DNA from: Lentimicrobiaceae bacterium
GTDB lineage: Bacteria > Bacteroidota > Bacteroidia > Bacteroidales > UBA4417
Direction: 5' to 3'
Assembly (NCBI GenBank): GCA_031550085.1
Contig: JAVBOY010000015.1
Coordinates: 27,429 to 91,428 of the forward strand
Length of the DNA stretch: 64,000 nt
Shown here: piece after piece, positions 1,159 to 14,459 of the stretch
Layout: each line of letters opens with the position of its first letter
How positions within the stretch are numbered: the stretch's first letter is position 1
Position numbers and translations under genes: made by a program
Notes under the pieces: generated by a model
Seen by the model: the letters and a program-made list of their open reading frames with translations, nothing else
Told to the model about the DNA's origin: nothing
Database searches by the model: none

Positions 1159-1716
1159 TTAGCAATTGCAACCGCTGCCGCAATCCGAAGACTCACACGA
1201 ACCACTGTCGCACGAACCTGAGCAATCGCAACCATGCGAATGCCCGTGTTCCAGCTCGGCTTCGGTGGGTTCGCGGACTTCCAGAATTTTTCCGGTAAAA
1301 TGCAGGGTTTTGCCTGCCATGGGATGGTTGAAATCCATTTTTACCATGGTATCGGTAACTCCCATGACTTTCCCTTGCAACATATTGCCCTGATTGTCAC
1401 TCATCGGAATGACGTTGCCCAACGAAAGCATGTTTTCGTCAATTTCTCCGTTGACGCGAAAAATTTCTTTATCCAGGTCAATCACTGCATGGGGATTGGT
1501 TTCACCGTAAGCTTCCTGGGCAGGAAGAATCATCTCGTAACTGTCGCCGGCTTTCAGGTTTTGTAGATGGGATTCAAAGTGCGGAAGCATCATCCCTACG
1601 CCGTACATAAAGGTCAAAGGGGCTGTCTCGTTTGTTATTTCGATTACTTGGCCATTGGCATCATTTTCTTTCAGCGTATATGTAAGAGAAACGATTTTGT
1701 TTTTTTCAATTTGCAT
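1159..1716 (-). CDS. slyD: FKBP-type peptidyl-prolyl cis-trans isomerase, SlyD-like, with Cys/Ser/Gly-rich C-terminal tail
   Basis: 185-aa ORF with ATG start. It has an FKBP fold with an inserted chaperone flap (LTFMYGVGMMLPHFESHL, HPMAGKTLHFTGKILEVREPT). The tail is HGHSHGCDCSGSCDSGSCESSDCGSGCNC. Confidence 0.85.
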   Translation of the reverse strand: MQIEKNKIVSLTYTLKENDANGQVIEITNETAPLTFMYGVGMMLPHFESHLQNLKAGDSYEMILPAQEAYGETNPHAVIDLDKEIFRVNGEIDENMLSLGNVIPMSDNQGNMLQGKVMGVTDTMVKMDFNHPMAGKTLHFTGKILEVREPTEAELEHGHSHGCDCSGSCDSGSCESSDCGSGCNC

Positions 1717-1894
1717 CGAGTTTGTGTTTTAAAAAGGGTTATTATTCTTTTGCTTAATTAACGTGGTTCTAGCGGTTTTGTTTAGCTGCCGGCCCACAAT
1801 TTTGCAAATTTACGGCTTTTCCTTTTTATGGAAATGGGAATCAGAGAGTAGGTGTGAATTATTATCATAAAAATATGTAATGCGCACCTTACCA

Positions 1895-2485
1895 AAGGTT
1901 TGAAAAAATTCAACAGTTGATGCCCCACGGGCAAATGATTGTCGTGAAATATTCTGCCTATTGATGTTCATGTCCCATGGACAATGAAATAATGGTAACA
2001 AGAATTTCCCGTTAGGAGAAGAATATCCATAAACACCGGACAAATGGGAAATTATATTGCCCGTCAGGACAGGAATCGCTCAAAAAATTTGAGTTGGTTC
2101 TCTCTGATAGTCGTCATATATTCGTTGATACCCCACGCAAATGATTGTCATGGAATATTTATCTATCGATGTGGTTGTACGAACTTAAATAATGATAACA
2201 TACACACCGGTTGGGAAGAATCCTCTCTATAAAATCGGTGTGGATCTCGTACAACAACTGCAATAGCACCTGTCAGGTGAAAAACATCAATAAACAGGAC
2301 AGGAAGATAGAAACAAATTGCCCGTCAGGGCATGAAGCATTCAAAAAAATTTGAATAGCTTCCAACGGCCATAATTTCCTCGTTGATGCTCTACAGGCAA
2401 ACAATTGTCGGAATATTTATCTATTGCTGTAGTTATCCTACGGACGATAGTGGTAGCGTAATTCCTCTGTCGGGAAGAAACTTAC
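1895..2485. repeat. Three diverged tandem copies (A, B, C) of a non-coding unit of roughly 200-260 bp
   Basis: The GTTGAT cores start at 1916, 2124 and 2382 (spacing 208 and 258 bp). Aligned cores: A gttgatgccccacgggcaaatgattgtcgtgaaatattctgcctattgatgt; B gttgataccccacgcaaatgattgtcatggaatatttatctatcgatgt; C gttgatgctctacaggcaaacaattgtcggaatatttatctattgctgt. Second block: A ataatggtaaca..tttcccgttaggagaagaat; B ataatgataaca..caccggttgggaagaatcc; C gatagtggtagcg..cctctgtcgggaagaaac. Each copy is preceded by an A/T palindrome (1900-1913, 2079-2093, 2339-2356). Indels between copies break every reading frame. Confidence 0.7.
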
Positions 2486-2557
2486 TGCTTATTTCCTTTC
2501 CTCAGTTATTCATAACAAATAAGGATAATTGTTTGTAACCCACCACTAAACAGAATT

Positions 2558-3805
2558 TTAAACCTCCACACAGAGTTTTTCAACGGCCTCCAGATTTTCC
2601 AAACGACTCAACAAAGGAGGATGTGAATAATGGACATAAACATACCAGGGATGGGGCGTAAGGTTACTCAGGTTCTTGACCGAAAGCTTTTTCAATGCAT
2701 TTGCCAGTGCCGGGCCGCTAAAAGTTTCGGCAGCAAAGCGGTCGGCTTGGTATTCGTGCCTGCGCGAAACGACATTGGATACAACTCCCAAAATCATGGA
2801 TATGGGCGAATAAAGTAATCCAAAGGCGATGACGCCGATGTGAAAACTTGTGTTTGTTGTTCCCAACGCTTCCGACAACAACGGATTGCCCAGCAGCAAC
2901 GAAAGGACATAGAACATGATGCCGGTTTGCACCACACTGGAAATTAATCCGGTAAGGATGTGTTTCTTTTTGTAATGCCCGATTTCGTGCGCCAGTACAG
3001 CAACCAATTCTTCGGTAGTGTGTTCTTTGATCAGGGTGTCGAAAAGGACGATCTTTTTTTGTTTCCCAAAGCCGGAAAAATAGGCATTGCCTTTCGTGGA
3101 ACGTTTGGAACCATCCATGACAAAGATATTTTTCAGGTTAAAGCCTGCTTTTCCGGCAAATGCGGCAATGGCTGAACGCAACCCGCCTTCTTCCAATGGG
3201 ATTAGCTTGTTGAACAGGGGTAAAATCAAAACGGTATAAAAATAACTGAGAAAAATCGAAAAGAAAGTAACCGCCATCCAAGCCCAAAACCAAAACCAGG
3301 AAGCGGTTTCGGTGTAAATCCAAACCAAAAAAGCGATAATTCCTCCTCCCAATAACGCTGCCATCAGCCAGCCTTTGAGTTTGTCCAGCATGTATGTTTT
3401 CACTGTGGTGGTATTGAATCCGAAGCGTTCCTCAATGACAAAAGTGTGGTATGCATCAAAAGGAGTGGAAAGTAAATCGGAGGCGAAACCTAAAATTCCG
3501 AAAAACAACAGGGCCTGCCAAACAGGCGATGGAGTAATTCCCTGAACCCAATGATCCAAATAAGCAAAACCCTGTACAAAAAGCATGGCCAGAATAAGTG
3601 CAAAGGAAAGGGTTTGGGTGTACATGGCAAACCGGAAATTTGCCTTTTGGTATTTTTGTTGCAACAAGTATTTTTCTTCGTCGTAAATTCCTTTTAGCTT
3701 TTCGGGAACCGTATTGCTCCAAGTGGTCGTATTCAGGTAGTCTAAAAAAATATCGATTAAAAATCCGGCAACAACAAAGGATAGGATCAAATAATAGAGG
3801 AACAT
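2558..3805 (-). CDS. M48 family zinc metallopeptidase (Ste24/CAAX prenyl protease-like), polytopic membrane protein
   Basis: 415-aa ORF with ATG start. It has several N-terminal hydrophobic helices, the HEIGH zinc motif (LAHEIGHYKKKH) and a downstream EYQADRFA glutamate motif. Confidence 0.85.
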   Translation of the reverse strand: MFLYYLILSFVVAGFLIDIFLDYLNTTTWSNTVPEKLKGIYDEEKYLLQQKYQKANFRFAMYTQTLSFALILAMLFVQGFAYLDHWVQGITPSPVWQALLFFGILGFASDLLSTPFDAYHTFVIEERFGFNTTTVKTYMLDKLKGWLMAALLGGGIIAFLVWIYTETASWFWFWAWMAVTFFSIFLSYFYTVLILPLFNKLIPLEEGGLRSAIAAFAGKAGFNLKNIFVMDGSKRSTKGNAYFSGFGKQKKIVLFDTLIKEHTTEELVAVLAHEIGHYKKKHILTGLISSVVQTGIMFYVLSLLLGNPLLSEALGTTNTSFHIGVIAFGLLYSPISMILGVVSNVVSRRHEYQADRFAAETFSGPALANALKKLSVKNLSNLTPHPWYVYVHYSHPPLLSRLENLEAVEKLCVEV

Positions 3806-3871: not shown

Positions 3872-4354
3872 TTATTCTTCTTTCTTCGCTTTTTGCGCTT
3901 TAGTCACGACAATACCTACTTCAGAAATACCGGGATTGTCATATTTTTGGCTTACACTTTCTATTTTTAAATGACAGGTTCCTTTTTCGGTAACGACCAG
4001 ATTGGACCACAAAAGGCTCGTAATTTCATACATGCCGTTGTCCATCGCTTCTCCTGCAAACTTGAGGTCCTTCTTTAGGATCACTTTTTTTTCCATATAC
4101 CGTTTTTCACCGGAAGGCAGATTCAGAACAGCGTAAATCGGAAAGTCATCAAAAGGAGTCTCGTTGGTAACACGCATTTTGAAGTAAATGGCTACTTCTT
4201 CTCCGGCTCTTTGAATGGGGATATCAAATTCCTGGTTGCTAAACCGTAGCCAATTGTTATTTTCTTGTTTGTGGTACTTTTCAAAAATGGGTTTTGAAGT
4301 ACAGGCCGTAAAAACAAATACACTGATCAGAAAAATAGATAAATACCTCATCAT
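3872..4354 (-). CDS. gldH: Small lipoprotein, GldH-like (gliding motility/T9SS-associated)
   Basis: The lipoprotein signal is MMRYLSIFLISVFVFTAC. The pattern C..KP.FEKY...W, ..PFDDFPIY, P.G, then ..PGISEVGIVVTK near the C-terminus matches my recollection of the GldH family. The assignment is by pattern only. The ORF-track start at 4357 is TTG, and the ATG at 4354 is preferred. Confidence 0.55.
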   Translation of the reverse strand: MMRYLSIFLISVFVFTACTSKPIFEKYHKQENNNWLRFSNQEFDIPIQRAGEEVAIYFKMRVTNETPFDDFPIYAVLNLPSGEKRYMEKKVILKKDLKFAGEAMDNGMYEITSLLWSNLVVTEKGTCHLKIESVSQKYDNPGISEVGIVVTKAQKAKKEE

Positions 4355-7211: not shown

Positions 7212-7241
7212 CAAAGGTAGTGAATCCTTTTTAATTTCAAA
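7212..7241 (-). promoter_or_regulatory. Candidate gcvH promoter TTTG-N18-TAccTTTG
   Basis: The plus strand has caaaggta at 7212-7219 (reverse complement TACCTTTG) and caaa at 7238-7241 (reverse complement TTTG). The -7 box lies 25 nt upstream of the gcvH ATG. Confidence 0.5.
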
Positions 7242-7274
7242 GCAATTTTACAGGCTTCCTAAAAGATTTGGGTA

Positions 7275-10200
7275 CTATTGCGCTAATAAGAAACTTAAAG
7301 TAATACCTGCTGCCGTGTTTGAGGTCGATACCTGAATTTGCGGCCTGTTAATAGATGTTTGGACAAATGCCCGGGCGCTTATGATCGCACTTAAGACGTA
7401 ATCGGCAGAAAGATTGATTGTATACTTTTTAAATCCGGCTGAAACTTCGGTATGGTTGTCCTCAATACTCCGCAAAAGCGTAATGTTGTCCATAATCGAG
7501 AAATCGGCCCGTATATTCAAATCGCTGCTGATTTTCTTTGCTTTCTTCGTCGGATCCAGCGACAGGATCCTAAAAGGAACATTTTTGAAACGGTATCCAA
7601 ATCCGGTAACGTATTCGCTGCTTCCCAATTCCGTGATTTGATTGTTCACAAAGCTCAGGGTAAGCGTCCGGGTCTTTTTATACTCCAAAACGATTTTCAT
7701 ACTGTTTTTCAGCGTCATATCAACACCAATCAATGGCGAAAATTGTTCCGAAAGTACCACCACATCCATCCGCTGGTACGGGATGAAGTCGTTAATTTCG
7801 TCGCGCTCCGAGGGATACCCATTTATAGCTTTGTAATTGATATCCGAAATAAATGACCCGATCGTATACGTTGAACGGTAATTATGCCTTAGAGTAACCG
7901 ATTGGAAGTTTTTCTGCAACGATTTGATTCCTTGATGCAAATTGTACGTTAAATTCCAGTTGGGCAGCGGAATTTTTTTAAACGGACTAAGATTCATGCT
8001 CGACGCATCACGTCCCGAATATCCGGAAAGGAATGAGCCCAAAAGAACTTGTGCCTGCGTATTGCTATATCCAACCGGGAATCCTAATGAATCCCGTTCT
8101 CCTGTATAATTCGGGTTTTGGCTTGCCAAGCGGTTTGCTACGACAATCCGGTTGTCCAACATGGTTGTAAACGCTTTATTACTGTAGTCCGAGTATGTTT
8201 TCGCAAAAGCCGTGGGCCACATGAAATAGGAGATCGTAAAACTTCCCGTTTCCTGCGGTATCGAAGAATTGATATTCCCGAAAGCATCAACGGTAAACAA
8301 TTCTTGGCTTCCTTTCCGGTAAGTCCGGTCAAAATTGACGGTAATTTTCAGGTTTTTAATGGGCTCCACGTTTGATCGCAGTTGAAATGCGTTTTGCGCA
8401 TTAACGATATACGGATTATTCAGAAGCGAATCCGTAGTGAGCCAACCTCTTTGGGCCGCCTTTTGCCGAATGTCTTTTTGACTTCCCAAAATAAAACCAA
8501 AACCCGGAGCCTGTGTATTATTCCAGTCATTTCCAAGCAAGCCCGGTTCAGGCATAAAGCCGGGTAAAGAAATTGTATTCGACTGGTTATAGGTAAAGCT
8601 CAAATCTTTCACCGACATCAAAACTCCCAGGAAATAGGTGGATGCTATTTTAAGATAATTCGGCTTGGGTTTTGGAACCGTGTCTTGTGGATTTTTTGCC
8701 GCCGTATTGCTAAGGCCCTGTTTTTGTGTATCTGCGGTTCGTTGTTGTCCTCTTTGACCCTGATCGGTTCCCATTTTTTGCAAGTCCTGAGTGGCTTTTT
8801 TCAGAAATCCGACTTTATCATACAATTTGGTCAGTGTGGCAGAACCCGAGAAACCCATTTCCCTTGAGTTGTCAATGGTATTCCCTAATTGTGATTGGAC
8901 CGACTTGGGCGAGGCAACCCAACGGTATGCCGCTCCATATTGCGCGGTTCCCGTAAACCAATCCAACGCTTTGACCTTATTAAAAGGCAAAATATAATTA
9001 ATCGAATAGGTTTGAGTAAAGTTGTTGGGTGATCCGAAACTGCGGATTGAGTTCCATACGGTATCGCGGTAAGCGCTTGATCCTTTATCAACTCCTCCGG
9101 AAGGTTCATCAATATAGGCATCCATCCGGGCGTTATACTTAAAGCGGATGGATTGTGCAATTTTATACTGCAAATCGTAGGAACGGGTCCAATCCCAGCG
9201 CTTCATATACGTCGGTTCCAAAATAATAAGGGCATCGCTCTTATTTCGCAGCATCCGCCGCTGATAATCGCGCCGCATATCGGTTTGAAATGAAAAAGAT
9301 TCCGGTAAGTAGTAAAAATTAAAATCGTTTATCAATGCAGGTAGCTTGGTTGCCGATTTAAACGGCTTCACAACTTTGGGACTTATGGCAAACATATAGC
9401 CCAAGGCGCCATTGTAAGATTTTGTCTTATCGGACTCGACGTCCACATTGTGTTTTTTGATTTCACTATAGGAATAGGATACATTAAAGTTTTCAATGTC
9501 CCATGGGTAAACTTTTTTAGGGGATCCCGCCACCCGCTCCTTCCGCACATTCATAAAGTTGATGCTCTGCCGTTGCACCACATCTTGGGTACGTTCGCGC
9601 AAGGAATCTCTTTGGGATTTCTGCAAATTATCGAGCTGCTTGCTGTATTTGACATCAGGATCCAATGGGTTGTACTCCGGATTCATTACAGTTTGCGTAT
9701 AATCGTAATGCAAAGGCAAACGGAGCCCGACGTTCTCTGGTAAGAATTTCCCCAACTCCAGATTTGTGGCTACATCAATTTGCTGGATGCTTTCTTTTTG
9801 GCGTTGGTTTATTTTTTCCTCAATGCTTCCAAATCCGGCAGTGCTGTATGAACCGGCAAGTACGATATTTCCCAAATCGGACAAAGTGGTGCTCAGCCGA
9901 CCTGTTGCAGCAAAGGCCGAATTTTCTTTAAAGTTGGTCAAACGCAACTCGTTGACCCAAATTTCGGCACATTTGGGCTGCCCGTCATCATCACTCTGCC
10001 CTCCGGTATATTTCGGATTTCGGACTCCAATCATAAACACACGTACATCGCTCAGGCTGGGCATTCCCAATATCGTTGTTTTCTTTCCGTTTTCCACAGT
10101 TACCCAAGGTAAAGTCGTGTTTGTGCTTCCTCGCTCCAATTTGGTATTCACCAATTCTTCAAGGTCTAAATCGATCATATTCGCATCCGGCCAAATGGCG

Positions 10201-13200
10201 TTAGCGTCGCTAGCTCCATATGTTCCCCAAGGTGTGAACTCGAGCGGAACTTCATACTCGTAATAGTTATTCGTAAAATCCGACCCGAAACGGATAAAAA
10301 CAGTCAAGTCGCCTTTTTTTAATTCCTGATTGGCAATGGATTTTTCGGCATGAATATACATTTTCAACCTTTTGTAATTCCGGAAATCGTAATCGGTTGT
10401 TTTGTAAGCTCCCCGAGCATCACCATCCAGCAAATTGCAAACTTTCAATACCATCGATTGCTCGTTTTGAGCAATGTAGCTTGTACTTCCAACCAATTGT
10501 TCGCGATCAACGCCCGGAGGCAACACATAAGGAACATTGGCGCGTTGGCTGTTTTCCTCAATGTTTACAGTTGAAATATCGAACGTTGTTGTGTTGTTAC
10601 CCGGATCCGGAACGTATTCACCGGGAGCCAGAAGCGAATTATTGTATTTCCGCCATTCTCCACGTTCCAATTCAAACGTCGCGAAGCGGCATACGATGGG
10701 GGTTTCAAAATTCTTGACAAGCATCCGCATAAAACGGACCGAACGGAAATCCTGAATGCTACCAACCACTTTTGTGGGCTGCTGAATGGGAATTTTAAAC
10801 TGGTACCATTTTACATTCCGTTTTTTCCCGTTTTCAAGTTCAACATCCATCGCCGTATACATATCCGTGATGTAATTCTCGCCGACAATCATTTTTTCAG
10901 GCCTTAATTGTAAGCGGTATTGGAAATAGCGTTCTTGATCGCTCAAGGTATTGTCGTTATTGATGTCCTCGACATTGGGGTTGAGGGTAAAACCCTGCGA
11001 CGTTCCGACAGGTGAGTTACCTTCTGGATTTGTATATTTTTTATATCGTTCTATGACACTGCTATACGTGGGATCGTTGTCGTAATCACCTCCCAAATAG
11101 TAGTGAAAATCGTCAGACCCAGGGTCATCGAAAGCATTCCGGTAAGCATCAGTATTTGTCCCATTGAATAAACTGTCGATCCTGCGTAAATAATTTGCAA
11201 AAAAGGAACGCTCATCTTCTGTGGAAAGTCCGTCGTAACCAATATCCTGATATTTCCTGGAATCCGCGTTGTTGTCGAACGAATTGGTAAGGGCCTGACG
11301 GCTCGGAACACGTCCCCAAATGGTTGTATCAACATCTTTTACTACTTCCGAGGTTGGAAAGCCGTTTTCAAACGATTTCCGGCCATCCCGTAAAATATCT
11401 TCCGAAATATCCCCCAGTTGGAAATAAAGGTCTCCCCCTCTTTGCGACGGATCTTCATCGAAAGGGTCCATCAGCCAGAATGTGATGTACTCGATGTTTG
11501 CTCTTTCAAAATCCGGATTGTCCATCTTTCGCATAATGCCCGCCCACCGTGAACTCGGCTCATTCAATCTTCCCGAAGGCGCAATGCCTTCCGAGTAAGA
11601 GGTGGGTTCTACGTCGTAATTGTAGGGGCCTCGTTCATCGGGGAAATAGGCTAAATTGAATACGGGCAAAATGGAAGGCCGGTTATTTTCAATCGATTTT
11701 TCAGGGAAAAGTTCCTTTTCATACACAATACGTGTTGAGTTTTTTGAAACTTCGTCGACCGAGATGTTGCCGGGTCTCCGGGTACTCCCGCTTGATCCGT
11801 AAAACAGGTCGTCAATATAATACCACGAAAGTCTTGCCCGGTTATACCCATAAATCAATCCGGTGCCCGGCGCCCCTTCGGGGAACATATCCCGGCTTGT
11901 TTGCCCTTGAGGTGTACTGGCAACACTCCAAGTTGTAATGGATTGCAAATTGATGCTCGTTTTTGCTCCCTCAAAATCATCAATGAACGATGTACCGGCT
12001 TTCCCAACCGAGCGGGAATGGCCCGGTATAAAATGAGCAAATTCTCCATCGAAACGTAATTTAGAAGGGGTAGCCGAGTTGGAATAAATTACTTTGTTTA
12101 CAATTTTTGTAATCCAACTAACATCTTTTTGGTAATTGACACTGGCACCCCAAATCACGTTATTGATCGGCTCATCTCCATAATTCGTCTTTTGCGTGAG
12201 CGGCCGTTCGTACATATTCATGATGGTGGCACCGATCAAAAGGTCGTTATTAACTTTATAATCCAAATGAGCTCCCAGCATGGTTTGATTATACAAGTTA
12301 AAGTTTGCATTGTTCTCCAACGAAATGTTGATGGGCGTCCCTGAATTTAAAATGCCCGGATTGATGATTTTAACGGTTCCCATCAAATAATCAACCGTGT
12401 AGTCGACATTCTCGGTAAGCTCAATTCCTCCTGCGCGCACTTTTACCGATCCTTGCGGGATGTTATTGGCATTTAAATGATACTCGCTTCCGGTTTCCGA
12501 CTTGTACTGGCCTTCGATGGTGTATTTGTTTTTTTCGGGGTATTGTTGTGCCCCGGTTTTTGTCAAGGTATAAAGTGAATCATAGCAATAACGGTCAGCC
12601 AACGATTTATCCCCGATTTTCTGTCGCAAATAACTGCCGAATGGTTCCAAAACCGTGAAATACACGCGGCCGTTTTTGGTGCTGATCGTTCCTCCTTGTG
12701 TCGGAGCATTGTCGATAAAATCGAAAATCCCATCGTGCGGAGGATTCATTTGTTGGTCCAAATTGTCCAATCCCATTAATTGCAAAAGAGGAACACCTTT
12801 CACTCCATCAGGGCCTTCCGTAAAATAACCGGTTGGGACGGCATTGTCATTCCCCGAATACAAAATGTTTAAGATGAAATCTTCTTTATTGAGCTGATAG
12901 GCGCCAATATTATAGACGTTTTTCATCATCAAATTCCACATCGGGATCCGGGTATTGGTAGCCGAACTTTTTAACAGTTTCACAATTAACGTACTGTTAA
13001 CCGGAATTCCCGCATCGGAAAATTCACCGACTTGATATACCTTGTCACTCCCAATCACGGTATACTGGTAAGCAACGGCCAGCGTTTGGTCTGCATTCAG
13101 ATAGGTATTTAACGAAATAAATCCCAACCTGCTGTTAAACGAAAACTCATCAGCGCGCAGTTTACGGGCCAATTCTATTTTTTCAAAATCGACTCCGGGA

Positions 13201-14459
13201 GTAAAGCCTTTCTGGGTTAAGTATTCATTGACCAGGTTTTTATTGCGGATATAACTGGTATCCAAATTTTTCAAAAGAGTATTTGAATTATTGGAAGGGT
13301 AAGTTCCACCGGCAACCGGAAGGACGGTTTTGTTGTAAGGGTCGTTTTCACCTAAATCTTGAAAACCAACGATGGTACGGTTTTCATAAACCGGAGCGCC
13401 GATATTGGTAATCCAGACTTCAATTTTCGTGATGTTGATGTTTGACGAAACGATCGGAAGCTTGGCCAACCCTTGTTCGAAATTGTTGCGGTGGTATTGC
13501 GCCAAGAAGAAGTGCCGGTTTTCTTCGTAGTCCAGCGCAGCAACTTTATATTTCGTGGTTTGGGCGCCGCCTTGGAACGTCATATTTTCCATTTGGCTCC
13601 TTTGTTGTGAAAAGACTGCCGTTACGGTTGCTTTCCCGAACTGCAACTGGGTTTTTAACCCAAACAAACTTTGACTCCCGTTGATAAGCGAACTGTTAAG
13701 CGGCAGCGTTACATCGCCCGCTTCGACCAGTTTGATGATTTCGTCTTCTTTCCCTTCGTACTTCAATTTTGTCTTGTTCTCAAAATCGAAGCTGGCGGCC
13801 GAACTGTAATTCATATTGAATTCAATCTTATCGCCGATTTTCGCCAAAGCATTCAGTTGGATGTTGGATGCGAAATCAAAGTTTCCCTGTTTTCGTTGCC
13901 TCTCCGGCAATGAAGGATCATTCCGGCGGTTGTGTAAGTACTGAAAGGTCAGTTCTGCACGGCCTTGTAAACGAATATCAATGGTGTTGGAGCCAAAAAT
14001 CGGCTCTAAAAAATCCAATTTTATCTGTGGGATAATTCCTTCTTGTGCCGATTTGGCGGTAGTTTTGGAACGCTCAGCCCAATAACTGTCCACGGCCCGT
14101 TTCAGATCCCAGTTTTTATACTCGTCAAATGAGAAAGAGGCGGGATTGAGGTAATCAAAATTTCCGATTTTTCTTTTGATGGTATATTCGTTGGTAACCG
14201 GATCGTATTCCAACTCCGTTTTCATATTCGGAGGATCCTTCATATACAAGCCCCCCGTAGGTTTGGGGTCATAGGGATTGGTAGTTTGAGGAATTGGGAA
14301 AACAGTCGTTGTATCATCTCCGGGAGGTGGAACTGCTGCCGAGTACCCTGTTTCCTGTTTTCCTAATGAAGAACCGAAACTGAAAGCTATGCCCACAGTT
14401 GTGAAGACAACCAAAGCCACTAAAGAAATCCTGGAAGTGTATTTTGTAACCTGATTCAA
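7275..14459 (-). CDS. sprA: T9SS outer-membrane translocon SprA (Sov homologue)
   Basis: A single 2394-aa ORF with a signal-like N-terminus (RISLVALVVFTTVGIAFSF). Its size and composition are typical of SprA, and the gcvH-sprA-ruvA neighbourhood fits Bacteroidota. The only in-frame start near the N-terminus is TTG at 14459, so the exact start is uncertain. Confidence 0.9.
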   Translation of the reverse strand: MNQVTKYTSRISLVALVVFTTVGIAFSFGSSLGKQETGYSAAVPPPGDDTTTVFPIPQTTNPYDPKPTGGLYMKDPPNMKTELEYDPVTNEYTIKRKIGNFDYLNPASFSFDEYKNWDLKRAVDSYWAERSKTTAKSAQEGIIPQIKLDFLEPIFGSNTIDIRLQGRAELTFQYLHNRRNDPSLPERQRKQGNFDFASNIQLNALAKIGDKIEFNMNYSSAASFDFENKTKLKYEGKEDEIIKLVEAGDVTLPLNSSLINGSQSLFGLKTQLQFGKATVTAVFSQQRSQMENMTFQGGAQTTKYKVAALDYEENRHFFLAQYHRNNFEQGLAKLPIVSSNINITKIEVWITNIGAPVYENRTIVGFQDLGENDPYNKTVLPVAGGTYPSNNSNTLLKNLDTSYIRNKNLVNEYLTQKGFTPGVDFEKIELARKLRADEFSFNSRLGFISLNTYLNADQTLAVAYQYTVIGSDKVYQVGEFSDAGIPVNSTLIVKLLKSSATNTRIPMWNLMMKNVYNIGAYQLNKEDFILNILYSGNDNAVPTGYFTEGPDGVKGVPLLQLMGLDNLDQQMNPPHDGIFDFIDNAPTQGGTISTKNGRVYFTVLEPFGSYLRQKIGDKSLADRYCYDSLYTLTKTGAQQYPEKNKYTIEGQYKSETGSEYHLNANNIPQGSVKVRAGGIELTENVDYTVDYLMGTVKIINPGILNSGTPINISLENNANFNLYNQTMLGAHLDYKVNNDLLIGATIMNMYERPLTQKTNYGDEPINNVIWGASVNYQKDVSWITKIVNKVIYSNSATPSKLRFDGEFAHFIPGHSRSVGKAGTSFIDDFEGAKTSINLQSITTWSVASTPQGQTSRDMFPEGAPGTGLIYGYNRARLSWYYIDDLFYGSSGSTRRPGNISVDEVSKNSTRIVYEKELFPEKSIENNRPSILPVFNLAYFPDERGPYNYDVEPTSYSEGIAPSGRLNEPSSRWAGIMRKMDNPDFERANIEYITFWLMDPFDEDPSQRGGDLYFQLGDISEDILRDGRKSFENGFPTSEVVKDVDTTIWGRVPSRQALTNSFDNNADSRKYQDIGYDGLSTEDERSFFANYLRRIDSLFNGTNTDAYRNAFDDPGSDDFHYYLGGDYDNDPTYSSVIERYKKYTNPEGNSPVGTSQGFTLNPNVEDINNDNTLSDQERYFQYRLQLRPEKMIVGENYITDMYTAMDVELENGKKRNVKWYQFKIPIQQPTKVVGSIQDFRSVRFMRMLVKNFETPIVCRFATFELERGEWRKYNNSLLAPGEYVPDPGNNTTTFDISTVNIEENSQRANVPYVLPPGVDREQLVGSTSYIAQNEQSMVLKVCNLLDGDARGAYKTTDYDFRNYKRLKMYIHAEKSIANQELKKGDLTVFIRFGSDFTNNYYEYEVPLEFTPWGTYGASDANAIWPDANMIDLDLEELVNTKLERGSTNTTLPWVTVENGKKTTILGMPSLSDVRVFMIGVRNPKYTGGQSDDDGQPKCAEIWVNELRLTNFKENSAFAATGRLSTTLSDLGNIVLAGSYSTAGFGSIEEKINQRQKESIQQIDVATNLELGKFLPENVGLRLPLHYDYTQTVMNPEYNPLDPDVKYSKQLDNLQKSQRDSLRERTQDVVQRQSINFMNVRKERVAGSPKKVYPWDIENFNVSYSYSEIKKHNVDVESDKTKSYNGALGYMFAISPKVVKPFKSATKLPALINDFNFYYLPESFSFQTDMRRDYQRRMLRNKSDALIILEPTYMKRWDWTRSYDLQYKIAQSIRFKYNARMDAYIDEPSGGVDKGSSAYRDTVWNSIRSFGSPNNFTQTYSINYILPFNKVKALDWFTGTAQYGAAYRWVASPKSVQSQLGNTIDNSREMGFSGSATLTKLYDKVGFLKKATQDLQKMGTDQGQRGQQRTADTQKQGLSNTAAKNPQDTVPKPKPNYLKIASTYFLGVLMSVKDLSFTYNQSNTISLPGFMPEPGLLGNDWNNTQAPGFGFILGSQKDIRQKAAQRGWLTTDSLLNNPYIVNAQNAFQLRSNVEPIKNLKITVNFDRTYRKGSQELFTVDAFGNINSSIPQETGSFTISYFMWPTAFAKTYSDYSNKAFTTMLDNRIVVANRLASQNPNYTGERDSLGFPVGYSNTQAQVLLGSFLSGYSGRDASSMNLSPFKKIPLPNWNLTYNLHQGIKSLQKNFQSVTLRHNYRSTYTIGSFISDINYKAINGYPSERDEINDFIPYQRMDVVVLSEQFSPLIGVDMTLKNSMKIVLEYKKTRTLTLSFVNNQITELGSSEYVTGFGYRFKNVPFRILSLDPTKKAKKISSDLNIRADFSIMDNITLLRSIEDNHTEVSAGFKKYTINLSADYVLSAIISARAFVQTSINRPQIQVSTSNTAAGITLSFLLAQ

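Follow-up and report, generated by a model that had tools for sequence, protein, structure and literature searches.

Three diverged tandem copies of a non-coding unit with a conserved 52-nt core lie between an M48 peptidase gene and slyD in an uncultured Bacteroidota lineage

Introduction

Tandem paralogous small RNA (sRNA) loci are known from several bacteria, such as LhrC1-4 in Listeria, PrrF1/PrrF2 in Pseudomonas and OmrA/OmrB in E. coli. There, every copy comes with its own promoter and an evident intrinsic terminator, the fold is reproducible and the sequences are conserved across species. Other sRNAs, for example CpxQ from cpxP, SroC and DapZ, derive from 3' untranslated regions (UTRs) and share the terminator of the parent mRNA. 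Intergenic repeats may also represent type I toxin-antitoxin systems, as do the LDR (ldr/rdl) and QUAD (ibs/sib) repeats of E. coli, where a conserved small hydrophobic ORF is accompanied by an overlapping antisense RNA, or they may belong to REP/BIME clusters and MITEs, which are dispersed and present in many copies per genome. To our knowledge, the Bacteroidota are a phylum without Hfq and their small-RNA biology is poorly known; a literature search on tandem Bacteroidota sRNAs yielded nothing useful.

Here we describe a gene-free gap in a 64-kb stretch of DNA (the window) that contains three tandem copies, units A, B and C, of one non-coding unit. The array is restricted to this uncultured Bacteroidota lineage. 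It resembles the LhrC, PrrF and OmrA/OmrB loci in that diverged head-to-tail copies share one intergenic region, a short core is constant and a hairpin ends each copy; unlike them, it has no exact promoter box, no significant consensus fold and no homologue elsewhere. As in the case of CpxQ, SroC and DapZ, the predicted terminator of a coding gene is preceded, at a distance of some tens of nucleotides, by a conserved segment. Unit C directly follows the stop codon of the M48 gene, which encodes an envelope quality-control protease and offers a context functionally akin to that of cpxP. Whereas CpxQ, SroC and DapZ are single modules, the array comprises three tandem copies. With the LDR and QUAD repeats (200-500 bp) it has in common that the copies are intergenic, tandem, diverged and rich in structure, but its three units share no conserved ORF. 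Like REP/BIME elements and MITEs the units are hairpin-forming non-coding intergenic repeats; unlike these, they have no other copy in the 64 kb and no match to plasmid or phage sequence. The array also looks like ordinary decaying tandem duplications and higher-order spacer repeats, since a 52-nt duplication is nested in units of ~190-260 nt, unit length varies, indels are many and the mosaic similarity suggests gene conversion. What sets it apart from a purely neutral repeat is a single 52-nt block that is significantly more constant in all three copies.

If the core acts as an RNA, the locus would exemplify the tandem amplification of a 3'-UTR regulatory module, here attached to the gene of an envelope quality-control protease. 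If, on the other hand, the array is a decaying duplication, it would be an ordinary by-product of a local rearrangement in which a conserved M48-PBP1A-slyD order lost its PBP1A, and it would matter only as a warning against reading function into repeats.

Results

A tandem array in the largest gap of the window

The gap between slyD and the M48/STE24 peptidase gene (Table 1) is the largest intergenic stretch of the window; the runner-up measures 405 nt according to a crude gene call. A first-pass annotation had already singled out this gap as the largest non-coding stretch and had proposed that it harbours three diverged tandem copies of one unit. Both points hold. When the units were compared with the 64-kb window by blastn, they matched one another far beyond chance (A-B, E=2e-10; B-C, E=8e-10; A-C, E=1.5e-6), and the core pattern given in that annotation matches inside the gap only (0.00 expected by chance). 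The array is thereby confirmed as real, yet it is larger than the extent of 1895-2485 originally assigned to it: it starts at ~1862 and reaches as far as the M48 stop codon at 2557. The unit-against-window search revealed no fourth copy in the 64 kb, and no further unit copies were found in the window or in the other retrieved loci.

The three copies are old. Pairwise global alignments show 69-72% identity; they contain 46-105 gap columns, and the ratio of transitions to transversions is near 1. The mean column identity of the three-way alignment is 66%. The divergence is too great for Tandem Repeats Finder, which did not detect the array. Over 5,232 compared bases, among them the entire gap, a 23.5-kb contig of a separate sequencing run is 100% identical. 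Since this second assembly is independent and identical, the array sequence is real and not an assembly artefact. Two positions at which Logan contigs end, 1786 and 2303, most likely reflect breaks in coverage.

Table 1. Features of the gap and its flanking genes (positions in the window; description and source as far as given)
Feature	Position	Strand	Description	Source
slyD	1159-1716	minus
Gene-free gap	1717-2557		841 nt, between slyD and M48/STE24 peptidase gene	ORF list
Exact Bacteroidota -7 box TAAATTTG	1805-1812	minus	96 nt upstream of slyD start; putative slyD promoter
Unit A	1862-2055		194 nt; shortest; without ~62-nt insert found in B and C	alignments, blastn
Delta-like end, unit A	1886-1913	minus	palindrome TTGAAAAAATTCAA 1900-1913 and hairpin ACCTTACCAAAGGT 1886-1899
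Unit A counterpart of -7-like box, AAGGTTTG	1895-1902	plus
Alpha core, unit A	1916-1968		plus-strand consensus GTTGATRCYCYAC(NN)GCAAAYRATTGTC(NN)GRAATATT(N)TRYCTATYGMTGT
Beta block, AAATAATGGTAACA	1987-2000		in A; homologues 2187-2200 in B, 2446-2457 in C	repeat search
Gamma block	2004-2038		in A; homologues 2265-2297 in B, 2534-2553 in C	repeat search
Unit B	2056-2316		261 nt	alignments, blastn
Delta block A/B	2056-2093	minus	hairpin TGCCCGTCAGGACA 2058-2071 and A/T palindrome 2079-2093
Near-consensus -7-like box AAAATTTG	2084-2091	plus	inside A/T palindrome; homologue 2346-2353 in C
Alpha core, unit B	2124-2176
Hairpin CACCTGTCAGGTG	2267-2279		inside gamma block of unit B
Unit C	2317-2557		241 nt; adjoins M48 stop codon	alignments, blastn
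Delta block B/C	2317-2362	minus	12-bp hairpin 2362-2334, GC hairpin 2332-2319, then AUUUGUUUCU
Alpha core, unit C	2382-2434
M48/STE24 peptidase gene	2558-3805	minus

Internal architecture and the conserved core

The most conserved 50-column window of the array is the alpha core, in which 37 of 50 columns are invariant (null maximum 30.2 +/- 1.7, p=0.0008); when B and C are taken alone, 42 of 50 are invariant (p=0.0024). Indels of 1-2 nt break up the core between its conserved blocks. Its similarity is mosaic, as A is like B in the 5' half and B is like C in the 3' half, and the conservation may reflect gene conversion between neighbouring copies. The 52-nt core is kept unusually well; any function of it is speculative.

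The gamma and delta blocks proved to be related, i.e. each unit contains an internal duplication of ~52 nt, which adds to the earlier description of the array. In nhmmer comparisons gamma versus delta reached 4.2-5.5 bits, all above the 95th percentile of the shuffled controls, with a top score (5.5) that is higher than the null maximum. A single ~50-nt sub-repeat behind the whole array was considered and rejected: only the gamma-delta relationship is significant, alpha-beta is borderline, and alpha shows nothing with gamma or delta.

The motifs described in the first-pass annotation lie where it had placed them, namely the hairpins at 2319-2332 and 2267-2279, the palindromes at 2079-2093, 2339-2356 and 1900-1913, and the -7 box on the minus strand at 1805-1812. 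The hairpin at 2071-2058 is fully paired only on the minus strand, by way of a G-U pair, and a U-rich tail follows; the 12-bp hairpin of the B/C delta block contains the A/T palindrome. While the sites of the A/T palindromes were given correctly, the compensatory change that had been read from them amounts to a single base pair. Likewise, the 'swapped' palindrome of unit A is present, but its aligned homologue may be 1865-1881 instead.

Relatives, RNA families and mobile elements

No true homologue of the core pattern was found in 185,579 species genomes, a collection without the source genome, which the pattern scan did not return, nor in metagenomes or viral contigs. Matches of the pattern scan were single chance hits confined to the seed, with at most 22 bits. 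As there is no homologue in another genome, metagenome or viral contig, no cross-species constraint is available. The three relatives whose flanking sequence could be compared (L003, L005 and L166) have a PBP1A gene after M48, and in L003 and L005 slyD is next after PBP1A. The array occupies the PBP1A place between M48 and slyD; in the relatives the spacer after M48 has only 70-120 nt. The unit is thus not conserved in related genomes, a finding that the first-pass annotation had named in advance as speaking against its proposal and that weakens the functional readings, although the test is weak because even the nearest relatives are only ~64% identical at the protein level.

The statement that no known RNA family or mobile element is recognisable agrees with our comparisons. 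At the gathering threshold Rfam 15 gave 0 matches in the whole window, and the best matches in E-value mode scored 16-18 bits as compared with gathering scores of 36-80. ARAGORN found no tRNA or tmRNA, the units matched no plasmid or phage sequence, and terminal inverted repeats with target-site duplications were not seen. There is no GC-skew inflection in the window, and DnaA-like boxes occur only as 7/9 matches at non-homologous positions, which does not make an origin. A dif-like stretch on the minus strand (1888-1861) needs a 7-nt spacer to fit the consensus. Fur, FNR and DnaA boxes gave weak partial matches, and no known operator consensus was matched. The motifs inspected by eye (oriC, dif, Fur, FNR and sigma-54) were all dismissed as weak partial matches, and a GC-skew switch is missing.

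The units are non-coding

No ORF is common to the three units. Reading frames are destroyed by indels between the copies, as had been pointed out before, and the ORFs 1810-2043 (minus) and 2044-2232 (plus) exist but are not conserved from unit to unit. Each of the ORFs of 62 and 77 aa is confined to its unit and matched no family. For the 77-aa ORF a phmmer search against 1.84 billion representative proteins returned two matches, both artefacts inflated by internal repeats of the targets, and the publicly annotated 62-aa 'gene' at 2044-2232 is probably spurious.

It is very improbable that the units are decayed coding sequence, whether pseudogenes of receiver domains, a piece of the PBP1A gene, or genes for small hydrophobic peptides that would be type I toxin-like or copied from the N-terminus of a lipoprotein. 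The core, which reads IFHDNHLPVG on the minus strand, resembles the phospho-acceptor motif of a receiver subfamily reached via L014, and a crude receiver HMM, which had the L014 protein among its sequences, is collinear with 1952-1728 (p ~0.01-0.03). However, the L014 match of the genome scan, located at the DNHLPDG motif within a response-regulator gene, goes back to the search pattern, which had seeded it. Nothing was found in Pfam, in PDB or in a search of 5.8 billion proteins, the HMM of the receiver subfamily gave 4.6 bits that come almost wholly from the seeded motif, and frameshift-tolerant profile alignment of the flanks resulted in p=0.05-0.75. Receiver similarity beyond the D-x-x-L-P-x-G motif (beta1, beta4 and beta5 at correct spacing) was not found, and with all these searches failing, pseudogenes of receiver domains (REC, PF00072) were discarded. 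A PBP1A relic fared no better, as tblastn gave nothing better than E=0.03, scattered over the strands, and frameshift-tolerant alignment on the minus strand gave p=0.39-0.62. Small peptide genes are suggested by plus-strand frames of B and C that have EYLSI and hydrophobic residues in common, the gaps being 3 nt long; this reading resembles the N-terminus of GldH, including a 12-nt identity. Yet the small plus-strand ORFs have 9, 15 and 18 codons, their frames, starts and stops are not kept between units, and there is no excess of synonymous changes, so that conserved small ORFs or a type I toxin were rejected. A copy of the GldH N-terminus was likewise abandoned, as beyond the 12-mer the similarity to gldH is at random level; the duplex energy with the gldH start region is not outstanding.

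Promoters, terminators and RNA folding

The exact -7 box at 1805-1812 is taken to be the putative slyD promoter. It is the sole exact box of the gap, for TAnnTTTG is absent from both strands of 1813-2557. Exact boxes were found upstream of 15 of the 45 genes in the window; they are exact by construction, and the use of near-matches is not thereby supported.

A terminator scan of the gap gave matches on the minus strand only, at 2332-2319 and 2071-2058; a weaker minus-strand hairpin with a U-rich tail is located at 1899-1886. The scan detected no terminator-like site on the minus strand between the M48 stop codon and 2332. It is important to note that terminator-like sites occur in the window at chance frequency (29 vs 24.9 +/- 4.6 in shuffles); the calls were therefore dropped as evidence for the strand. 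In unit C the 3' module consists of two adjacent hairpins followed by AUUUGUUUCU and has -24.4 kcal/mol in context, and this double hairpin of the B/C delta block is likely the M48 terminator, as far as can be predicted. Units B and A have weak 3' modules (-11 kcal/mol), the hairpins becoming weaker from C to A.

The gap as a whole folds better than dinucleotide shuffles, with z -4.7 on the minus and -5.9 on the plus strand. For the individual units A, B and C the folding z is -2.1, -3.5 and -1.8 on the plus strand and -0.7, -3.4 and -0.5 on the minus strand. Gamma and alpha pair, on the minus strand, in a 14-bp long-range helix that all three units retain with G-U pairs. Against column-shuffled alignments the consensus fold of whole units gave z -1.67 (p=0.067) on the minus strand and z -0.4 to -0.83 on the plus strand, i.e. 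for three sequences there is no significant consensus fold on either strand.

Discussion

Among the readings considered we tentatively favour one, as a possibility, in which the array is a triplicated 3'-UTR/terminator module of M48 that acts as an RNA on the minus strand. A lineage-specific non-coding module would have been triplicated in tandem at the place where relatives carry PBP1A between M48 and slyD. Read along the minus strand, on which both flanking genes lie, every unit consists of a variable 5' part, then the conserved 52-nt core and finally an A/U hairpin, a GC hairpin and a U-rich tail; the distance from core to hairpin is ~50 nt, and 16 nt in unit A. Since unit C begins directly at the stop codon of M48 and the strongest double hairpin forms its end, we infer that it is transcribed as the 3' UTR of the M48 mRNA and includes its terminator. 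Units B and A would be older tandem copies of the 3'-UTR module, situated downstream of the M48 terminator and ahead of the slyD promoter (1812-1805), and they could be reached via read-through of weak hairpins, which in the absence of an internal canonical promoter fits better than separate genes. The module would act as an RNA, given that the core stays the same from copy to copy and the remainder decays, and the 1-2-nt indels within the core would be tolerable for RNA modules, not for coding sequence. Candidate roles are those of a 3'-UTR element or of a 3'-UTR-derived sRNA with the core as interaction surface. RNA function, targets and the transcription of B and A are speculative.

Nearly as likely as the 3'-UTR module is a functionless relic, in which a ~260-bp piece of spacer with the M48 terminator was duplicated twice in tandem after PBP1A had been lost or moved, and then decayed. 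Patchy gene conversion would keep tracts alike, and only the M48 terminator and the slyD promoter would be functional. The relatives that have PBP1A here, together with a short spacer after M48, are in line with such a history, as are the lack of a homologue elsewhere, of an internal canonical promoter and of a significant consensus fold. Unit lengths of 194, 261 and 241 nt, the many gap columns, a transition/transversion ratio near 1 and 3' hairpin modules that weaken from C to A likewise point to decay, and the most similar pair of units varies along the alignment, as gene conversion predicts. What a relic explains less well is that the core is significantly better conserved in all three copies and not in one pair alone, that copies diverged by ~30% have escaped deletion although the other intergenic gaps have at most 405 nt, and that the region folds much better than shuffles.

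The remaining readings are clearly less probable. The first-pass annotation had considered independent tandem sRNA genes, a proposal that is weakened as internal promoter box, significant consensus structure and a homologue outside the genome are all missing. It is improbable that the units are three paralogous sRNA genes on the plus strand, divergent from slyD and converging on M48, each driven by a near-consensus AAAATTTG box and forming nested helices around the core. Boxes of the type AAAATTTG or AAGGTTTG do occur at homologous unit positions, the z-scores per unit are better on this strand, 96% of the cells pair in the nested-helix model (82% on the minus strand, and 35-61% when the 3' partners are slid) and RNAalifold counts 6 of 25 pairs changed on both sides. 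However, the initial T of TAnnTTTG is missing from the box, the upstream TTG is 23-24 nt off, and the scan found no plus-strand hairpin with a U tail in the gap. The helix model was eventually rejected in spite of its appealing pair counts: it has 2 compensatory pairs, but the consensus fold is insignificant against column-shuffled alignments, the shuffle control (163/500) is not significant either, and unit B, when folded by itself, does not take up this structure (z +1.2). An equally improbable option, likewise raised in the first-pass annotation, is an array that works at the DNA level, in which a regulator or a nucleoid protein would bind the three cores upstream of the slyD promoter. It would account for cores that are kept as sequence rather than as structure and that lie directly upstream of the gap's only canonical promoter, and the blocks contain short partial palindromes, e.g. 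AAATGATT and ACAATTGT. On the other hand, the cores are 104 nt (nearest) to >570 nt (farthest) away from the -7 box, the 1-2-nt indels shift the helical phasing of the conserved blocks, the centre of the palindrome is not the same between units, and the operators compared (Fur, FNR and DnaA) gave only the weak partial matches described above.

A bolder version of the M48 3'-UTR module is unlikely, although less so than the plus-strand and DNA-level options. According to it, the array would represent a new lineage-restricted regulatory RNA family, i.e. a triplicated 3'-UTR sRNA module of an M48/HtpX-like mRNA, from which graded terminator read-through would yield up to three sRNAs (<=3) with one 52-nt interaction core.

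In weighing the RNA-module reading, the persistence of the copies to ~30% divergence in an otherwise tightly packed window was counted in its favour, together with the terminator-scan matches and the hairpin at 2071-2058, both of the minus strand, the 14-bp helix and the better consensus fold of that strand. Counted against it were the z-scores per unit and the nested-helix pairing, which favour the plus strand, the chance-level terminator sites, the insignificant consensus fold, the weak 3' modules of B and A, the missing homologues elsewhere and possible gene conversion in the core. The conserved 52-nt core and the assignment of unit C to the M48 3' UTR are both additions to the first-pass annotation.

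An orphan tandem repeat between slyD and the M48 gene

According to a crude gene call, no other intergenic stretch of the window is as long as the 841-nt gap between slyD and the gene for an M48/STE24-type peptidase (the next largest has 405 nt). The gap harbors three homologous units in head-to-tail orientation. In blastn searches of a unit against the window the copies retrieved each other (A-B, E=2e-10; B-C, E=8e-10; A-C, E=1.5e-6) and nothing else in the 64 kb. Core patterns were found in the gap only, at a chance expectation of 0.00-0.03 matches (window pattern scan). Both the three diverged tandem copies and the shared core pattern described in the first-pass annotation are thus corroborated. 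The repeat is indeed present at 1895-2485, where that annotation had placed the array, but its extent is larger, with a phasing from 1862 to 2557, up to the M48 stop codon.

Global alignments of the units gave pairwise identities of 69-72% with 46-105 gap columns, and transitions were about as frequent as transversions. Because the copies are too diverged, Tandem Repeats Finder did not report the array. An independent 23.5-kb contig (run SRR23967709) agrees at each of the 5,232 bases compared, the complete gap among them, and therefore the gap sequence is real. What the gap contains is a genuine tandem repeat that is both orphan and non-coding. Two contigs from run SRR23967707 break off within the gap, one at position 1786, ~12 nt past the point where slyD transcription is predicted to start, and the other at 2303, 16 nt beyond the hairpin at 2332-2319. 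Since the remaining contigs of this run are short and the neighboring genes incomplete, these ends are most likely low-coverage breaks.

Features of the slyD-M48 gap and of the corresponding loci in relatives (blocks of a unit in plus-strand order)
Feature	Position	Strand	Remark
slyD	1159-1716	minus
M48/STE24-type peptidase gene	2558-3805	minus
Unit A	1862-2055
Unit B	2056-2316
Unit C	2317-2557		reaches M48 stop codon
Delta block, GC hairpin	2058-2071; 2319-2332		TGCCCGTCAGGRCA
Delta block, A/T palindrome	2079-2093; 2339-2356		follows GC hairpin
Spacer, delta to alpha			~30 nt, weakly conserved
Alpha core	1916-1968 (A); 2124-2176 (B); 2382-2434 (C)		52 nt
Beta block			ATARTGRTARC
GGGAAGAA block			after beta block
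Insert			~62 nt, B and C only
Gamma block			last in unit; diverged copy of delta
Sole exact -7 box of gap	1812-1805	minus	96 nt upstream of slyD
Putative M48 3' UTR end	2362-2334; 2332-2319	minus	12-bp A/U-rich hairpin; GC hairpin, then AUUUGUUUCU
M48-PBP1A region, L003	5001-9274		relative
M48-PBP1A region, L005	5001-9249		relative
M48-PBP1A region, L166	2997-5211		relative

The relatedness of the gamma and delta blocks is reflected in a lag of 52 nt in a repeat search and in cross-type nhmmer scores of 4.2-5.5 bits, above the 95th percentile of shuffles. Among the 50-column windows of the three-way alignment the alpha core is best conserved, with 37/50 invariant columns versus a null maximum of 30.2 +/- 1.7 (p=0.0008, column permutation); the B-C pair alone reaches 42/50 (p=0.0024, same procedure). 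Indels of 2, 2 and 1 nt interrupt the core between its blocks.

Rfam yielded nothing credible in E-value mode and zero families at the gathering threshold for the whole 64-kb window, which also lacks any tRNA or tmRNA. Plasmid and phage collections gave no match to the array. In line with these blank searches, the earlier statement that no known RNA family or mobile element is recognizable holds for the collections searched. Core-pattern scans of 185,579 species genomes (the source genome not among them) and of viral contigs gave only single, seed-confined matches that scored at most 22 bits in nhmmer, and the same applies to the matches listed for metagenome contigs.

The locus in relatives

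Among 5.8 billion proteins, the best relative of the M48 protein shares at most ~65% identity, and therefore a comparison of orthologous non-coding sequence is impossible. In three relatives with flanking sequence (loci L003, L005 and L166) M48 is followed by PBP1A (transglycosylase plus transpeptidase), and the spacer 3' of M48 measures just 70-120 nt. The next gene in L003 and L005 encodes an FKBP/SlyD protein that is 59-61% identical to SlyD of the window; the L166 sequence stops inside PBP1A. PBP1A is missing between M48 and slyD in the window (1159-3805), and the array is found there instead. No PBP1A occurs anywhere in the 64 kb, and neither translated search nor frameshift-tolerant alignment detected a remnant in the gap. 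It follows that the array is new to this lineage and postdates a local rearrangement.

SlyD itself carries a Cys/His-rich C-terminal tail (HGHSHGCDCSGSCDSGSCESSDCGSGCNC, 1162-1250, minus strand). The 168-aa orthologues of L003 and L005 align with residues 1-155 of this SlyD only, suggesting a metal-binding extension that is specific to the lineage.

Coding potential

A comparison of the ORF lists of A, B and C revealed no ORF common to the units, in agreement with the first-pass annotation, which regarded the ORFs in the gap as not conserved from copy to copy. The small plus-strand ORFs in the core vary in start, length and stop. A 62-aa ORF (2044-2232, plus strand; product P0167) is a gene call in public data (NCBI and Logan). 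The ORF extends over portions of A and B, no equivalent exists in the other units, and a Pfam search assigned it to no family; the call is probably spurious. Two phmmer matches of a 77-aa ORF were discounted, as their scores are inflated by repeats within the target proteins.

A core-pattern scan of the genome collection gave 17 scattered single matches. One of them, in locus L014, falls in a gene for a 138-aa single-domain response regulator (7240-7656, minus strand), at its DNHLPDG motif. The minus strand of the core translates as IFHDNHLPVG, LDNHLPDG is invariant in the regulator subfamily (43 members retrieved, alignment A3), and the DNA of this motif matches the repeat core. A receiver-domain relic was nevertheless rejected, since the L014 match had been picked by the search pattern itself and all independent tests failed: the Pfam search was empty, a word search of 5.8 billion proteins gave no candidates, the PDB contained nothing, an HMM of the 43 subfamily proteins scored 4.6 bits, nearly all from the motif, and frameshift-tolerant profile alignments of the flanks, motif excluded, yielded p=0.05-0.75. 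The case illustrates how a search pattern can seed a false lead.

Transcription signals and RNA folding

An exact TAnnTTTG lies within 150 nt upstream of 15 of the 45 genes in the window; the canonical -7 box of Bacteroidota is thus in use in this organism. Inside the units there is no exact copy on either strand, and the plus strand has near-matches only (AAAATTTG), within the A/T palindromes. Because a terminator scan of the minus strand found no terminator-like site between the M48 stop codon and 2332, we infer that unit C would be transcribed as the M48 3' UTR; in the same scan, terminator-like sites occur in the window at chance frequency. The double hairpin of unit C with AUUUGUUUCU has a predicted energy of -24.4 kcal/mol in context. 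Homologous modules, predicted to be weaker, lie at the ends of B and A, and the hairpin 2071-2058 is fully paired on the minus strand only, via G-U.

Taken as a whole, the gap outperforms its dinucleotide shuffles in folding (z -4.7 on the minus and -5.9 on the plus strand), values that are inflated by repeated inverted segments. A nested-helix model of the plus strand has 96% of cells paired and two compensatory pairs; pairing is 35-61% when the 3' partners are shifted and 82% for the minus strand. The latter has a 14-bp long-range helix of its own, G-U pairs included. The decisive control was alifold against column-shuffled alignments, with three sequences only: z was -0.43 (plus) and -0.04 (minus) for the core, and -0.83 and -1.67, respectively, for the whole unit, so that a consensus fold is not supported on either strand and the folds do not discriminate between the strands.

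Possible origins of the array

We tentatively rank first a tandem triplication of an M48 3'-UTR/terminator module that would act as RNA on the minus strand, because unit C is read as part of the M48 transcript, every unit ends in a minus-strand hairpin module, canonical internal promoters are absent, and the 52-nt core is constant in all three copies although the units differ overall by ~30% and small indels occur. Nearly as likely is a duplication that has no function and is decaying, with gene conversion in patches; these two readings are close in probability. The other three rank lower. Plus-strand sRNA genes, on the strand favored by the per-unit folding z-scores, seem unlikely, as does, to the same degree, a DNA-level binding array for slyD; that the units are decayed coding sequence is very improbable.

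Minor observations

Over 12 nt, a segment of the unit C core (TATTTATCTATT, 2414-2425) is the exact reverse complement of gldH codons 5-8 (4334-4345). This minus-strand gene lies two genes upstream, and a minus-strand core RNA could pair with its start region. Given a BLAST E of ~0.65 and an unremarkable RNAduplex rank among 45 gene starts, the match is probably due to chance. On the minus strand, GGTGCGCATTACATATTTTTATGATAAT (1861-1888) resembles the E. coli dif site, GGTGCGCATAATGTATATTATGTTAAAT. The XerC end agrees in 9/9 positions, but a 7-nt spacer is required to fit the XerD arm; neither a GC-skew switch nor a change in gene orientation occurs nearby. Finally, the 6.9-kb ORF at 7275-14243 (minus strand), which adjoins gcvH and is close to gldH, encodes SprA, a component of type IX secretion.
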